Under the pieces are notes generated by a model. It worked only from the letters and a program-made list of their open reading frames with translations, made no database searches and was not told where the DNA came from. Made by a program: the position numbers and the translations under genes. From Phycisphaerae bacterium (GTDB taxonomy: Bacteria; Planctomycetota; Phycisphaerae; UBA1845): a stretch of 64,000 nt of DNA. Below, piece by piece: positions 24,594-60,842 of the stretch. The stretch covers positions 879-64,878 of the forward strand of contig JAJDDV010000109.1 of the NCBI GenBank assembly GCA_029260135.1, given 5' to 3'. Position 1 is the stretch's first letter, and the number at the start of each line of letters is the position of its first letter.

Positions 24594-24849
24594 CGGCCGT
24601 CGTGTCGGCGGGTTCGTACGGCGAGATCTATCCTGACGGCGGGGATGGTACCTTCCTTGCCGTACTGCACACCGCACGGAGTCTGCCGGATTGGCCGTAG
24701 CGTCGCGGGGTGGGCGTCGGCAACCGTCTCATCTCCAATTGCGGCTTCACCGAGCAATTGTGGAGACGGCGCTACGGTGCGTCCGTGGTGGAGCGTATTC
24801 TGCATCGTCTCTGAATCACCGGCTGGAAACCGGTACCACACAGAAAATG

Positions 24850-25655
24850 GTGGAGTGGGCGGGTAAGCCGAATTCTGTGGTCGCTCGTATTTCACCGGTT
24901 GGAAACCGGTGCCACACAGCGTGGTGGCGATCATTCATCTAGGCCGGCGGTCGCCCGCCGGCTCGAGCACCCTACCCGCAGCTTCGGAGGATCGAAGCGA
25001 GCCCCGAGCGATTGTGGCCGCTCCCTTGCGGTCGCGGTACGGATCGTCGGTCTGCGATCGATCGTTCATGAGGCGGGTCGCCTCTCGCTGCCTATTTGGG
25101 CTTGCTGGCGGTGGGGTTTACCCTGCCACGACCGTCACCGGCCGCGCGGTGCGCTCTTACCGCACCTTTTCACCCTTACCCTTGACACGTCGCGCTGCGA
25201 TTCGCGAAGAGGTCGTCGCCGGCACTGGCAGCAAGCTGCCCGTGGTACCCTGTGACGACATGCCCGCGCCTTCGGCTTGGCACCCGGCACCCGGTGTGGT
25301 CCGCGCAGCGGACCCTACGGACTCGAGCGGCCTGGTCCGCATGGCGGAGCCTACACAGCTGTCGGTTGCACCCGGTCTGGTGCCGACATGGCGGCGCTTC
25401 GCTTGGCCATGGCACCCACCGATATGGCGGCGCTTCGCTTGGCCATGGCACCCACCGACATGGCGGCGCTTCGCTTGGCCATGCCACCCACCGTCCTCGC
25501 GAATGGTGGCGCGACGTGTCAAGGGCGGTGTCTTTTCTGTGGCACTTTCCCTCGGCTCGCGCCGGGTTGGCGTTACCAACCACCGTACCCTATCCAGTTC
25601 GGACTTTCCTCCCGCGCGTCATTGCGCGCGGGCGATCGCCTTCGCCCACTCCACC
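24850..25655 (-). ncRNA. rnpB: RNase P RNA (type A), about 805 nt with large insertions
   Basis: Conserved GGAGGAAAGUCCG, AGUGCCACAGAAA, GGGUGAAAAGGUGCGGUAAGAGCGCAC, GGUAAACCCC, AGAUGAAUGAU and ACAGAAUUCGGCUUA in the correct order; P1 GGUGGAGUGGGCG/CGCCCACUCCACC. Confidence 0.95.
25383..25490. repeat. Three 36-bp tandem hairpin repeats inside rnpB P12
   Basis: ccgacatggcggcgcttcgcttggccatggcaccca at 25383, 25419 and 25455. Confidence 0.9.
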
Positions 25656-25661
25656 GGTCTG

Positions 25662-25690
25662 ATTGTAGGTTGCGGGGCGCGGATTGTCGA
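25662..25690 (-). promoter_or_regulatory. rnpB promoter
   Basis: TCGACA-17 nt-TACAAT ending about 7 nt before the predicted 5' end. Confidence 0.65.
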
Positions 25691-25764
25691 ACGCGGGCGA
25701 GGTGGGTCGTTTTCGGCAGACGAGATGCACGCAACATCGGCTGCGCGACTGGACAAGAGGTTGG

Positions 25765-25972
25765 CCCTCCCCGACCCCTCCCCGTGGGAGGGGGGATTTC
25801 ATGCCCGCGCCTTCGGCTTGGGCATGGCACGCGGCGCTCCCTGCACCGCGCGGGCTGAAGAGCCCGCGGCTCCGGTAGGAATCCGTAGTATCGGGCGCTC
25901 CCGACAAGGGGGGATTTCATGCCCGCGCCTTCGGCTTGGGCATGGCACCAGGCGGGTTGGGCATGGCACCCG
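25765..25972. repeat. Intergenic palindromic repeat cluster
   Basis: aggggggatttcatgcccgcgccttcggcttgggcatggcac occurs twice (about 25789 and 25907); a related copy lies inside rnpB at about 25260. Confidence 0.8.
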
Positions 25973-25994
25973 ATTTCGCGGGATGTTGGTGGTT

Positions 25995-27965
25995 TCAGCC
26001 TCGTTTGTTTTGCCAGGGGTTGCCGGCTGTGACGGGGAAGGGCGAGTATCCCGTCATACCGGGGGGCAGTGAGGGTTTGACGTTTGCGTCGGGCGGTGTC
26101 TGTGGTGGCGGTGGCGATTCGGCGCCGGCGGGTTCGAGGTCGGCGGGGTCGATGTTGGTTCGGTCTTGTCTTCGCCAGTGGTCGACGATGTCGTCGAGGT
26201 CGTAGGCGACCGACTCGGATGACCAGTGTTTGAAGAAGTCCATGTCGCCACTCTGCGGGCGCGGATCGGGTATTTCGACGAGGGTTCTCATGGGCATGAG
26301 TACGCAGTCGCCGATGATGAAGGCTTCGCCGGGTCGCAGGACGGGTAGCATTTCGAGCACGCCGGCGAAGTGATCGCCGATGACTCTCGAGACGTAGTGC
26401 TGGTCGTCGGGGTTGCTCATTCTCAGGACGACGAAGCTGTTACACTGCGAGAGCACGGTTTCCGAGAGTTCGGAGGGTCGCTGCGAGATGATCATGGCGC
26501 TGACGCCGTACTTCCGCCCTTCCTTGGCGACGCGTTCGACGGCCATCTTGGCGAATGCGGTTCCTTGTTCTCGGCGCGGGATGTAGTTGTGCGCTTCTTC
26601 GAAGACCAGAAGCGTGGGGTGGCGTTGCGTGACGGGTGTCCAGAAGTTGAGGTCGAAGAGCAATCGCGTGAGTACGGCGACGGTGATATCGACGATTTCG
26701 AAAGGGATTCCGGAGAGATCGACGATGGTCAGGTTGCTTCGCGGTTCGACGCGTCCGGTGAGGAGCTTGACGAGGTGGTTCATCAGGCTCGAGGTTTGCT
26801 CGGGGCCGTCGAGGTGCGAGATTTCATCGCGGAAGTACTTTGATTTGAGTCCGTGCTCGAGTGGTTTGAGGAGGAACTCGTATCGTCGGTCGTTGTACTT
26901 GGTGTCGATCTGATCGATCAGTCCGAGGAGTTTCCCGAAGTAGAGCGGGTGCGGGGTCTCGCCCTGGGGGTTTCCGCGATTGAACTGGCAGCGCTGGTCG
27001 CGCATGAGGCGTTCTTGTTCTTTGGGGTCCATGGACCTCAGGGCGAGCTGGCTGAAGGCGTATCGGTCGTCGTTGAGGACGAATCGTGCGTCGTTAAGGT
27101 TTTCGCCGTAGGTCTTGAGTCTGTCGAGGGAGAAGAAGATCGGGGTGTCGAGGGTCAGGGTCTTGGTGAGGCCCAGCGCCTCGGCGGCGTCTTGCTTGAA
27201 CTCGAGCAGTGCGGTTCTGAGGAAGGAGATCTGTGTTGAGACGTTGATCGGGTTGGATCGGTCGACGAAGAGGGCTTCCATTTCCTCGTACTTGAGAAGC
27301 CAGTAGGGGACGACGAGGTCGTTGACGCCGAGGTAGGTGACGTTTGCGTTGACTTGTCCTTCGTCGTCGCTGAAGGCGGCGCGGTATTCGCCGTGCATAT
27401 CGAAGAGGACAACCTGCGACTGGTTGAGATCGAGGATTTCCTGGAGGACTTTGGCGGTCGTGCAGCTTTTTCCGCTTCCGCTGTTTCCCAGGAGGGCGGC
27501 GTGTTTGGCGAAGAACTCGGAGCCGAGGATCTTGACGTCGAAGTCGGGGTTATAGGCGAACTGTCCCAGAGAGAAGCTCTGGGGGTGGTCGGATCCGGCG
27601 AGAAGCTGATCGTAGCTCCCGAAGATGGTCTCGAAGTCGTCGCGAACGGCGATCCAGACGTCGTCGCCGACGATGGGGTAGTCGTTCACGCCGCGGGTGA
27701 ATTTTCCGTTCCGGATTTCGCCGAGTAGCTGGACGCTCATGAGGAGTTGGGGTTCGGTGCCGCCGACGATGACGTCTTGTCGGCCGGTACCGGTGACGAA
27801 TCCGACGAGGGTCCGCTCGTCCATGGGGATGGTGACGTAGGAGCCGAGTTGGCCTACGCGGTAGGGCCTGTCTTCGTAGACGAGGTTCAGCTCGGTGGTG
27901 GTGATGAGCACCTCCACGGCTCCGCTCTTGACCCGAATGACGCTACCAATCTGGAGTGGGTTCAT
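25995..27965 (-). CDS. HerA/FtsK-superfamily ATPase (HAS barrel, DUF87-like)
   Basis: GQLGSYV barrel; Walker A GNSGSGKS; FDMHGEY; Walker B LLVFEEAH; KEGRKYG; SQRPSEL. Confidence 0.9.
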   Translation of the reverse strand: MNPLQIGSVIRVKSGAVEVLITTTELNLVYEDRPYRVGQLGSYVTIPMDERTLVGFVTGTGRQDVIVGGTEPQLLMSVQLLGEIRNGKFTRGVNDYPIVGDDVWIAVRDDFETIFGSYDQLLAGSDHPQSFSLGQFAYNPDFDVKILGSEFFAKHAALLGNSGSGKSCTTAKVLQEILDLNQSQVVLFDMHGEYRAAFSDDEGQVNANVTYLGVNDLVVPYWLLKYEEMEALFVDRSNPINVSTQISFLRTALLEFKQDAAEALGLTKTLTLDTPIFFSLDRLKTYGENLNDARFVLNDDRYAFSQLALRSMDPKEQERLMRDQRCQFNRGNPQGETPHPLYFGKLLGLIDQIDTKYNDRRYEFLLKPLEHGLKSKYFRDEISHLDGPEQTSSLMNHLVKLLTGRVEPRSNLTIVDLSGIPFEIVDITVAVLTRLLFDLNFWTPVTQRHPTLLVFEEAHNYIPRREQGTAFAKMAVERVAKEGRKYGVSAMIISQRPSELSETVLSQCNSFVVLRMSNPDDQHYVSRVIGDHFAGVLEMLPVLRPGEAFIIGDCVLMPMRTLVEIPDPRPQSGDMDFFKHWSSESVAYDLDDIVDHWRRQDRTNIDPADLEPAGAESPPPPQTPPDANVKPSLPPGMTGYSPFPVTAGNPWQNKRG

Positions 27966-34152: not shown

Positions 34153-34314
34153 GCTGGTCTAAGAACGCACCGGCGGACAAGCCGCCAGTGGCACCCGGCG
34201 CAGCCTTCGTCGTCACCCACAAGGGGTGACGCTACATGATCGCCGAAACGGCGCATTTGCGTCGTAGCGACCTGCGATCGACTTTGCGCGGTCTGACGGG
34301 TGGAGGGTTGAGTC

Positions 34315-39085: not shown

Positions 39086-39658
39086 ATGCCCGAGTATCGA
39101 CGTCCCTTCGCACCCGGTGCGAGGTTCTTCTTCACCGTCGTGACGGCCTGTCGGCGTCCAATTCTCACCGGCGAGGCGTTGGATCTTCTTCGCACCGCAT
39201 TTTCCGAGGAACGCGCTCACCATGCCTTCGAAATGGACGCTGTGGTCGTGCTTCCGGAACACCTGCATTGCATCTGGACGTTGCCACCTGATGACACGCG
39301 TTTTTCAATGCGTTGGTCAGGTATCAAGGGTCGGTTCACCGAGTTGTATCTTGCGCAAGGCGGTACCGAAGCCAGGCGGAGTGCATCACGCCGAACACGC
39401 AACGAGCGCGGTGTCTGGCAGCGCCGCTTCTGGGACCACGTGATCCGCGATGAGGCGGACTACCAGCGACATGTGGATTACATTCATTATAACCCTGTCA
39501 AGCATGGATACGCTCGTTGTCCACACTCGTGGGGGCCATCGAGCTTCGACAAGTGGATAACGGCCGGCGTGTATCCGGCCGATTGGATGTGTGAATGTGC
39601 CGGCGTGGACGTGAAGCCGCCGGATTTCGGTGATGTAGAGGGCCGGGCCGGCGAGTGA
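39086..39658 (+). mobile_element. rayT: REP-associated tyrosine transposase (RAYT/TnpA-REP)
   Basis: MPEYRR...FFFTVVT, VVLPEHLHCIW (HUH), WQRRFWDHVIRD, YIHYNPVKHG; flanked by inverted REPs. Confidence 0.93.
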
Positions 39659-45019: not shown

Positions 45020-45385
45020 CCCGGCGCGCCGGGACCAGTGGCACCCGCATTCGGCAGCGATTGTGGTCCGCACAGCGGACCCTGCGTAGCTTCACCGGTT
45101 GGAAACCGGTGCCACACAGGGGCGCCACGCATGAAGCGTGGCGCTACATGGCGGACAGCGGCAGAACCCCCTGTCGTCCGCCCTTGGTGAAGGGGGGAGC
45201 CGGTTCGCTTCACGACGGTCGGTTACAGAACCCCCCTGTCGTCCGCCTTTGGTGAGGGGGGAGCGAGCAGAGCGTGCATCAGGATGCACCTACCTGCGGT
45301 GGTCCGCACAGCGGGCCCTGCGTGGCTTCACCGGTTGGAAACCGGTGCCACACAGGGGCGCCACGCATGAAGCGTGGCGCTACAT
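45020..45385. repeat. BIME-like REP cluster
   Basis: 87-bp unit at 45063-45149 and 45299-45385 (2 mismatches), made of three hairpin types and separated by two C/G-run hairpins. Confidence 0.85.
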
Positions 45386-60356: not shown

Positions 60357-60755
60357 AGATTCGTAGGGTCCGCTGAGCGGACCGCAGCCGCTGCAAAGAT
60401 TCGTAGGGTCCGCTGTGCGGACCGCAGATTCGTAAGGCCCGCTGTGCGGACCGCAGATTCGTAGGGTCCGCTGTGCGGACCGCTGATCGCTGACAACCGA
60501 CCCCTGACAACTGACAACTGCTTGCTGACAACTGCTTACTGACAACAGACGACTTTCTCCTGTGTGGCACCGGTCTTCAACCGGTGGTCCGGAGCATAGT
60601 GTTCCCTGTGGGACCGACTTTCCAGATTCGTAGGGTCCGCTGTGCGGACCGCTGATCGCTGACAACCGACCCCTGACAACTGACAACTGCTTGCTGACAA
60701 CTGCTTACTGACAACAGACGACTTTCTCCTGTGTGGCACCGGTCTTCAACCGGTG
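60357..60755. repeat. REP cluster: tandem GTAG REPs plus a 133-bp direct duplication
   Basis: GTAGGGTCCGCTGTGCGGACCGC-like units, five in total; 60454-60586 matches 60623-60755; CTGACAA heptamers. Confidence 0.9.
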
Positions 60756-60842
60756 AGCGATGCAGGGGGGTGCGGTGCGACCCCCGCCAACGACTGCATT
60801 TCACGGAATAACCGCTCTCACACCCTTCCCGCAAGGCAATCA

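Follow-up and report, generated by a model that had tools for sequence, protein, structure and literature searches.

RNase P RNA is an essential ribozyme that usually measures 350-420 nt. The 64-kb stretch of DNA analysed here (the window) belongs to an uncultured Phycisphaerales bacterium of the phylum Planctomycetota and carries an rnpB gene of 805 nt, which encodes a type-A RNase P RNA (Table 1). This gene was the sole match to RF00010 that cmscan returned in the window, and no second Rfam family was matched there. It scored 221 bits (E 2.1e-70), the gathering score of the model being 100 bits, and model positions 1-367 were all aligned without truncation. An earlier reading of the sequence alone had proposed an intact rnpB of about 805 nt, with an intact P1 and a promoter, and had expected Infernal to return a split or gapped match. 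The gene is indeed intact and its match is gapped by inserts, but the match is unbroken over its full length and not split. P1 is extended to 24849/25655 by a perfect 13-nt inverted repeat, in which 24849-24861 pairs with 25643-25655, reaching the limits that the sequence-only reading had drawn for the gene. As for the promoter, one sigma-70-like consensus match was found, ending 10 nt upstream of the 5' end of the RNA, compared to a mean of 0.2 sites in shuffled sequence. A T-run terminator was looked for downstream of rnpB and none was found. A hairpin repeat of the family that we call REP-D lies directly downstream, and this copy may play the role of a 3' hairpin for rnpB.

The neighbours of rnpB are a fragment of an ECF-type sigma factor gene and a gene for a HerA-like ATPase (HerA domain). 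The HerA-rnpB synteny was observed at 22 of 80 related loci. Two REP-B copies lie upstream of rnpB, in the interval that separates it from the HerA-like gene. A 387-aa open reading frame on the plus strand (24909-26072) runs antisense to rnpB; it had no Pfam match and was treated as spurious. A permissive Rfam scan of 24700-26000 (E up to 1) returned no family other than RF00010, and a group I or group II intron, or another Rfam RNA nested in the insert, was rejected on this basis. Among the other structural RNAs of the same genome, the tmRNA (353 nt) and the SRP RNA (98 nt) are of ordinary length, and the 23S rRNA is assembled only in part.

Table 1. Features of rnpB and its surroundings, in window coordinates.
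Feature	Position	Strand	Remarks
REP-D copy downstream of rnpB	24815-24843	minus	3 mismatches; begins 5 nt past the 3' end of the rnpB RNA
rnpB, type-A RNase P RNA	24848-25652	minus	805 nt
P19 segment	24879-24931	minus	53 nt
Exact REP-D at the tip of the P19 helix	24891-24919	minus	0 mismatches
P16/P17-region segment	24979-25090	minus	112 nt
Low-copy repeat F in the P16/P17 insert	25016-25042	minus	
Enlarged P12, basal stem and REP cluster	25179-25525	minus	347 nt
P12 basal stem, 3' arm	25179-25210	minus	pairs with 25494-25525
Hairpin, diverged member of the small REP family G	25223-25250	minus	GGGTGCC tag
Decayed REP-B	25262-25294	minus	from BLAST coverage and reading against the consensus
GTAG-type REP-C	25297-25319	minus	1 mismatch to genome consensus
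Diverged GTAG-type REP-C	25333-25355	minus	4 mismatches to genome consensus
Three tandem REP-A units	25383-25493	minus	period 36, 3.1 copies, 96% matches
P12 basal stem, 5' arm	25494-25525	minus	inverted repeat, 32 nt, 88% complementary
Sigma-70-like promoter match, TCGACA-17-TACAAT	25662-25690	minus	consensus match only
Two REP-B copies, HerA-rnpB spacer	25800-25832, 25918-25950	minus	

The extra length of the gene lies at three peripheral sites. In the cmscan alignment, the P12 loop takes up about 320 unaligned nucleotides, the P16/P17 region about 70 and the P19 position, flanked by the 3' strands of P2 and P4, about 32. The inserts are confined to these sites and all core elements are untouched. 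The sequence-only reading had described the enlargement of P12; those of the P16/P17 region and of P19 were absent from it, as was the placement of the gene on the minus strand. Segment lengths were measured between conserved anchors in an alignment of 30 sequences, consisting of this gene and 29 relatives. The P12 segment is 357 nt long, compared to 18-136 nt in the 29 relatives. The P16/P17 segment measures 112 nt (30-135 nt in the relatives) and the P19 segment 53 nt (21-65 nt). The remainder of the gene amounts to 283 nt, within the 271-326 nt of the relatives, showing that the core is of ordinary size and that most of the excess is in P12.

The enlarged P12 consists of a basal stem closing a cluster of repeats. 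The stem has an outer run of 17 perfect base pairs followed by 11 more, in agreement with the earlier description of a P12 of about 347 nt closed by a perfect 17-bp stem. The first bases of its 5' arm, CCCUUGAC, are common to the P12 of one relative (G008). The predicted fold of the P12 element has an energy of -192.4 kcal/mol (z -5.9 compared to 100 shuffles). The minimum-energy fold of the whole 805-nt RNA has a z of -6.6 and keeps the closure of 17 and 11 bp. The interior of P12 is made up almost wholly of genome-wide repeats, which follow one another in RNA order as A, A, A, diverged C, C, decayed B and diverged G. Three features of this interior had been noticed from the letters alone, and each was recovered. 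The three 36-bp tandem hairpins correspond to the REP-A array, whose cores at 25387-25417, 25423-25453 and 25459-25489 have 0, 1 and 1 mismatches to the consensus, respectively. The two GTAG REPs are the two REP-C units. The hairpin thought to be related to 34168-34197 is a diverged relative of that repeat and belongs to the same family G. The decayed REP-B retains the first 22 nt of the consensus as read on the plus strand, and its far arm is replaced by a duplication of GGCACCC; the replaced hairpin arm is the 5' end of the unit in the RNA. Consistent with this, TRF detected a 7-nt repeat at 25279-25294, inside this unit.

The other two inserts are smaller. Within the P16/P17 segment, 25005-25041 has no counterpart in at least 27 of the 30 aligned sequences. 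This part overlaps a repeat, family F (27 nt), which was considered as a REP and not called one, as it has just 4 genome copies at up to 3 mismatches. At P19, the tip of the helix is an exact copy of REP-D, and the hairpin of this copy is present in the predicted 805-nt fold.

A BLAST search of rnpB against its own genome gave matches in the inserted parts only, and five repeat families (A, B, C, D and F) were derived from these matches. All five are hairpins carrying a short conserved tail, and in each family the copies are split roughly evenly between the strands. Family A (31 nt) has 115 genome copies at up to 3 mismatches, family B (33 nt) 98 copies at up to 4, family C (23 nt, beginning CGTAG) 98 copies at up to 2, and family D (29 nt) 41 copies at up to 3. 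Family G has 29 copies at up to 5 substitutions, including 34168-34197. The tag of family C is GTAG; families A, B and G carry the tag GGGTGCC. The genome contains 11 matches to the Y1 transposase family. Three of the corresponding loci are RAYT genes bracketed by inverted REP copies, of family A on contig C193, family B on C25 and family C on C198. They scored 102.9, 98.7 and 192.4 bits, respectively, against NF047646 (REP-associated tyrosine transposase; cut-off 80). Families A, B and C are hence true REPs, each having a RAYT of its own. A fourth RAYT gene is flanked by another GTAG repeat. For family D, the search for a RAYT was negative: D copies flank none of the other eight Y1_Tnp loci.

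The REP copies are mostly extragenic. Coding calls were crude, made from ORF length and GC by codon position, and called 83.6% of the genome coding. Outside these calls lie 87 of the 115 copies of family A, 74 of 98 of family B, 73 of 98 of family C and 28 of 41 of family D (68-76%), leaving about a quarter of the REP copies inside them. Other loci of the genome also have REP clusters in a single orientation, such as eight A copies on contig C133 and a C-A-A-C-A-C series on C126, and the P12 cluster thus resembles any other REP cluster of this genome. Beyond this organism, family A was detected in 34 of the 101 genomes of the taxonomic family (22 of 54 genera) and family C in 43 of the 101 (24 of 54 genera), at 1 to more than 200 copies per genome. 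Reversed-pattern controls for both families gave 0 matches in all 101 genomes. Families A and C are old.

We next consider whether the gene works. In its genome (94.8% complete, 224 contigs), it is the sole match to RF00010; the second rnpB that the sequence-only reading had suggested looking for was not found there. The genome encodes rnpA (PF00825, 96.9 bits, contig C41), and no match to TIGR03875, the HARP protein-only RNase P, was found in it. The core blocks (the P4 strands, the J11/12-J12/13 region and the P15-P18 junction) are all present and in order in the cmscan alignment. Over the four conserved blocks (236 nt), located with nhmmer profiles, the gene shares 97.0% identity with that of G101, the nearest relative by block identity, and the inserts of the two genes are unalignable. 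From the single match, the retention of rnpA, the lack of a HARP match, the core identity of 97.0% and the location of the inserts off the core, we conclude that rnpB is functional, as judged from sequence.

Enlarged rnpB genes recur among the relatives of this organism. An rnpB match was obtained in 89 of the 101 genomes of the taxonomic family. Using nhmmer block profiles, and leaving out three partial loci, 66 loci were measured, namely this gene and 65 relatives. The P12 segment of the relatives has a median of 41 nt and a maximum of 273 nt, compared to 358 nt here by the same measure. For the P16/17 segment the median is 54 nt and the maximum 282 nt (113 nt here), and for the P19 segment 25 and 146 nt (53 nt here). 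The block-to-block span of G067, at 760 nt, equals that of the present gene; those of G071 and G069 are 673 and 636 nt. The rnpB of G093 is 705 nt long; in that of G014, a gene split over two contigs, the P12 segment comes to about 346 nt. One relative's rnpB with an insert of similar size comes from an independent MAG and lies on a 380-kb contig. The relatives with large inserts have one rnpB match each. In a sample of 150 genomes of other Planctomycetota, each with a completeness of 90% or more, rnpB was matched in 148, and the longest full-length match was 585 nt.

The inserts of the relatives are located in P3, P12, P16/17 and P19 and are made of other repeats. In many of the closest relatives, the P12 arms are tandem octamers, GAAACGYC pairing with its complement, and in some the P16/17 arms are built from GAATGNN heptamers. 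The inserts of G067 match 66 further places in the G067 genome. Recognisable copies of five REP families were observed in 4 rnpB genes among the 66 loci. Exact copies are present in G093 (REP-C, in P12) and in G008 (REP-G, in the P3 loop); the REP-G of G110 is diverged, and G089 has a D-like hairpin at P19. Across the taxonomic family, then, the outer helices of rnpB have been filled time and again by the repeats that happen to abound in each genome.

The expansion sites themselves are known ones. The tip of P12 is described as such in PMC12974513, and the P16.1 and P19 positions in PMC9945441. Taken together, we consider it probable that the locus holds a single working type-A rnpB whose outer helices have been filled by mobile or slippage-prone repeats, and that the insert is retained and near-neutral. 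That intergenic repeats had repeatedly inserted into tolerant helices was already the interpretation of the sequence-only reading, and it has been strengthened, the repeats being true REPs with RAYTs, mostly extragenic, and the phenomenon recurring in relatives. REPs would have been deposited in the P12 loop as copies made by the RAYT tyrosine transposases, which would act on single-stranded hairpin DNA. The cluster may then have grown by insertions beside existing REPs and by tandem duplication, the latter giving the array of 3 x 36 nt. Tolerance of the cluster could be due to the stem of 17 and 11 bp, from which the self-folded repeats would project as a side arm off the specificity domain, comparable to an rRNA expansion segment. 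Most likely, the P12 insert stays in the mature RNA and would be nearly neutral for catalysis. A near-perfect stem of 28 bp is the type of duplex that is cut by RNase III, and since such a duplex closes P12, retention is our preference rather than a finding.

The reading that competes most directly with retention is that the P12 REP cluster is excised after transcription, for example by RNase III acting at the stem of 17 and 11 bp, to give a two-piece ribozyme. The pieces would be held together by the stub of the P12 stem and by tertiary contacts, much as in 23S rRNAs fragmented at intervening sequences. The long near-perfect basal duplex that closes the insert is consistent with this. So is the location of the insert at the tip of a helix, where rRNA intervening sequences also sit, and in vitro the RNase P RNA of bacteria can be put together again from fragments. 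However, relatives have equally long perfect P12 duplexes composed of octamer repeats, so a long stem alone is no sign of cleavage, and in cyanobacterial rnpB the repeat-extended P12 belongs to the RNA. We regard excision as rather unlikely. That the organism, together with the relatives that have giant rnpB genes, runs on a natural two-piece RNase P ribozyme produced by excision at the P12 stem is a broader claim, and we regard it as unlikely.

Public sequencing runs were searched for reads of the organism. Twenty runs shared sampled words with the stretch, one of them at least half of the words (share 0.63), and four were compared with it. No RNA of the organism was found in the runs sharing words; the RNA runs matched through the conserved rnpB cores of other organisms, with their own short P12. 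Apparent skips of about 343 nt in DNA and RNA runs were likewise from the rnpB of other organisms, with other letters between the two sides, and were rejected as signs of excision or of transcription of the present gene.

The assembly of the P12 interior has also to be considered, as the assembler may have strayed through REP copies of other loci, in which case the interior would be partly an artefact and the true P12 would have fewer elements or another order. The genome has many REP copies. Logan contigs from what is probably the source study match the locus at 100% over 24700-25158 and 25487-25799. None of these contigs bridges the P12 interior (~25181-25486), and the break falls exactly at the REP array, at 25487. 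The depth of the organism in the runs that hold it is about 5x. Scans of metagenome contigs gave no independent assembly: a 33-nt junction pattern had 0 matches, and a 20-nt pattern from the base of P12 had one chance match, in an unrelated coding region without rnpB. With no independent bridging contig, the order and number of the P12 units rest on one short-read MAG. On the other hand, the two flanks are colinear, on one strand, and form the complementary arms of a single stem. The REP units (23-33 nt) and the 111-nt array should be below the typical read length, and clusters of the same make-up occur at other loci. Inserts of similar size are present in independent MAGs of relatives, including the one on the 380-kb contig. 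Moreover, unless the true P12 itself had two or more REPs, the assembler could not have made a detour via another locus. An artefact of this kind is very unlikely, and the colinear complementary flanks, the units shorter than a read and the comparable inserts of relatives argue that the P12 insert is at least mostly real.

A further alternative is that the REP cluster has been co-opted as a platform for protein binding, as a stabiliser of the RNA or as a regulator of the level or location of RNase P. Expansions at the tip of P12 give protein-binding sites in archaea and eukaryotes, according to PMC12974513, and all eight REP units in and around rnpB are in one orientation. However, the 14 REP copies that lie from 6854 to 45355 of the window all have this orientation, which makes it a regional feature and not one specific to the RNA. 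The inserts are also wholly different among relatives (REPs, octamers, heptamers or unique sequence), and in this gene the B unit is decayed and one of the C units diverged. We find co-option highly improbable. Finally, a dead rnpB disrupted by repeats, with RNase P function supplied from the unassembled 5% of the genome by a protein-only enzyme or an rnpB of normal size, is hardly credible: the genome is indeed incomplete and in many contigs, and 221 bits is below most relatives' scores, but the lower score would be explained by insert penalties, the whole model is aligned with core blocks 97% identical to those of a relative, the inserts spare every core element, rnpA is kept with no HARP match, and in relatives with large inserts, too, rnpB gave a single match.

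For a working rnpB with repeats in its outer helices, the closest precedent is that of heterocyst-forming cyanobacteria, which reportedly carry STRR repeats inside P12 of rnpB. In both cases, dispersed repeats of the genome lengthen P12 and the core is intact, and the relatives of our organism also share with the cyanobacteria the use of tandem units of 7-8 nt. In contrast, the units of the present gene are REP hairpins of 23-33 nt tied to RAYTs rather than arrays of heptamers, a single helix combines several families, and three helices are affected. The RNA reaches about 800 nt, and the phylum is Planctomycetota. The intervening sequences of bacterial 23S and 16S rRNA, which are removed by RNase III, offer a second comparison. 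They too are helix-tip inserts in an essential RNA with a long closing duplex. Excision is their defining step, whereas the present insert is known from sequence alone.

The repeats themselves agree with REP/RAYT (REPIN) systems as described in PMC3116915 and PMC3337134, where short tagged hairpins occur in about 100 copies, mostly extragenic, with a single RAYT gene flanked by inverted copies and with the GTAG tag seen here in family C. GTAG REPs in Planctomycetes, and REPs inside protein-coding genes, are described in PMC3733652; the term 'RNA genes' is absent from that paper. Compared to the REP/RAYT systems in these papers, the REPs of this locus are inside a structural RNA gene and form direct arrays instead of inverted pairs, and families A, B and G have the tag GGGTGCC instead of GTAG. 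The matches listed for the REP, RAYT and REPIN literature contained no mention of rnpB.

RNase P RNAs of the PVC group have P16.1 and P19 expansion elements, as given in PMC9945441, which cites Butler and Fuerst 2004. As in the present gene, the extra structure of these elements is at the P15/16/17 region and at P19, and the superphylum is the same. The PVC elements are typical of their lineages and modest in size, whereas the P19 tip described here exactly reproduces a dispersed repeat and the main site of expansion is P12. At the tip of P12 itself, archaeal and eukaryal RNase P RNAs have the expansion segments ES5.1 and ES5.2 (PMC12974513), which were likewise inserted with the older core untouched. 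In that account ES5.1 and ES5.2 are conserved and protein-binding; in contrast, the inserts of this organism are young, variable between genera and composed of mobile repeats. The literature found on repeats in bacterial RNase P RNAs, or on unusually large ones, did not describe the present case. As far as our search extended, repeats in P12 are known, and what is new is the REP/RAYT agent, the presence of several families, the involvement of three helices, the size of about 800 nt and the recurrence across the lineage.

The finding shows that selfish DNA is able to enlarge an essential RNA, with REP families present in three outer helices of rnpB. It adds structural RNA, which is absent as an insertion site from the REP papers searched, as a new kind of REP target to the intergenic DNA and protein genes reported before. 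It also provides a concrete source for RNA expansion segments, which are usually inferred solely from ancient, conserved insertions. The giant rnpB genes mark the positions of the ribozyme that tolerate hundreds of extra nucleotides, and they supply natural constructs, full-length or insert-less and from differing relatives, for work on folding, RnpA binding and possible processing by RNase III. As their covariance-model matches are low or split, such genes may be missed or miscalled in the annotation of MAGs. If the two-piece ribozyme were true, it would be the first fragmented bacterial RNase P RNA, made by mobile repeats, and would parallel the fragmentation of rRNA by intervening sequences. 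In this Phycisphaerales family, the outer helices of rnpB grow to twice the usual size, and in the organism studied here the added material can be named.

The rnpB gene of one related genome, G067 (locus L151, G067:C7:240415-241702), equals the Phycisphaerae bacterium gene in length. Its P16/17 region holds arrays of the heptamer GAATGNN, its P19 carries a hairpin with a GTAG tag, and its inserts have 66 further matching places within the G067 genome. Repeats were also observed in the P3 loop of two other relatives. REP family G, one of the short hairpin repeat families of the Phycisphaerae bacterium genome, is represented by an exact copy in the P3 loop of G008 rnpB (locus L011, positions about 1525-1555) and by a diverged copy in that of G110 (locus L147). 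These two copies indicate that P3 is a fourth helix that accepts REPs.

P12 is ~100 nt long in the close relatives represented by loci L035, L037-L039, L041, L047, L049, L146 and L155, and its arms are built from tandem octamers, with GAAACGYC in one arm and the complement in the other. This mode of helix lengthening resembles that of the STRR, the short repeats known inside P12 of cyanobacterial rnpB. In a further relative, G014, the 3' part of rnpB is carried at a contig end (G014:C1234, locus L033), where the last about 300 nt form a perfect self-foldback that looks like an assembly artefact.

In the Phycisphaerae bacterium genome itself, the assembled part of the 23S rRNA is limited to its 3' third, at a contig end (G000:C169:15618-16745). 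No Pfam match was found for the ORF that runs antisense across rnpB and its upstream spacer, and ORF-based annotation could therefore miscall a protein there.

Features of the window
Feature	Position	Strand	Details
Antisense ORF across rnpB and its upstream spacer	24909-26072	+	387 aa
Y1 transposase match	39131-39487 (C12:40009-40365)	+	weak (22.3 bits), within a 417-aa open frame
REP cluster	45064-45355		pair of C-D composite units separated by 236 nt
REP cluster	60362-60757		array of four C units and one D, opposite orientation

No repeat of families A-D or G was found within 700 nt of the weak Y1 transposase match. On contig C218 (locus L114, G000:C218:8206-11535), at about 1140-1970 of the locus, a further RAYT-like gene is located between arrays of another GTAG repeat (GTAGCGCCACCC..GGGTGGCG). 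Given that families A, B and C each have their own RAYT transposase gene, this arrangement brings the REP/RAYT systems of this genome to at least four.
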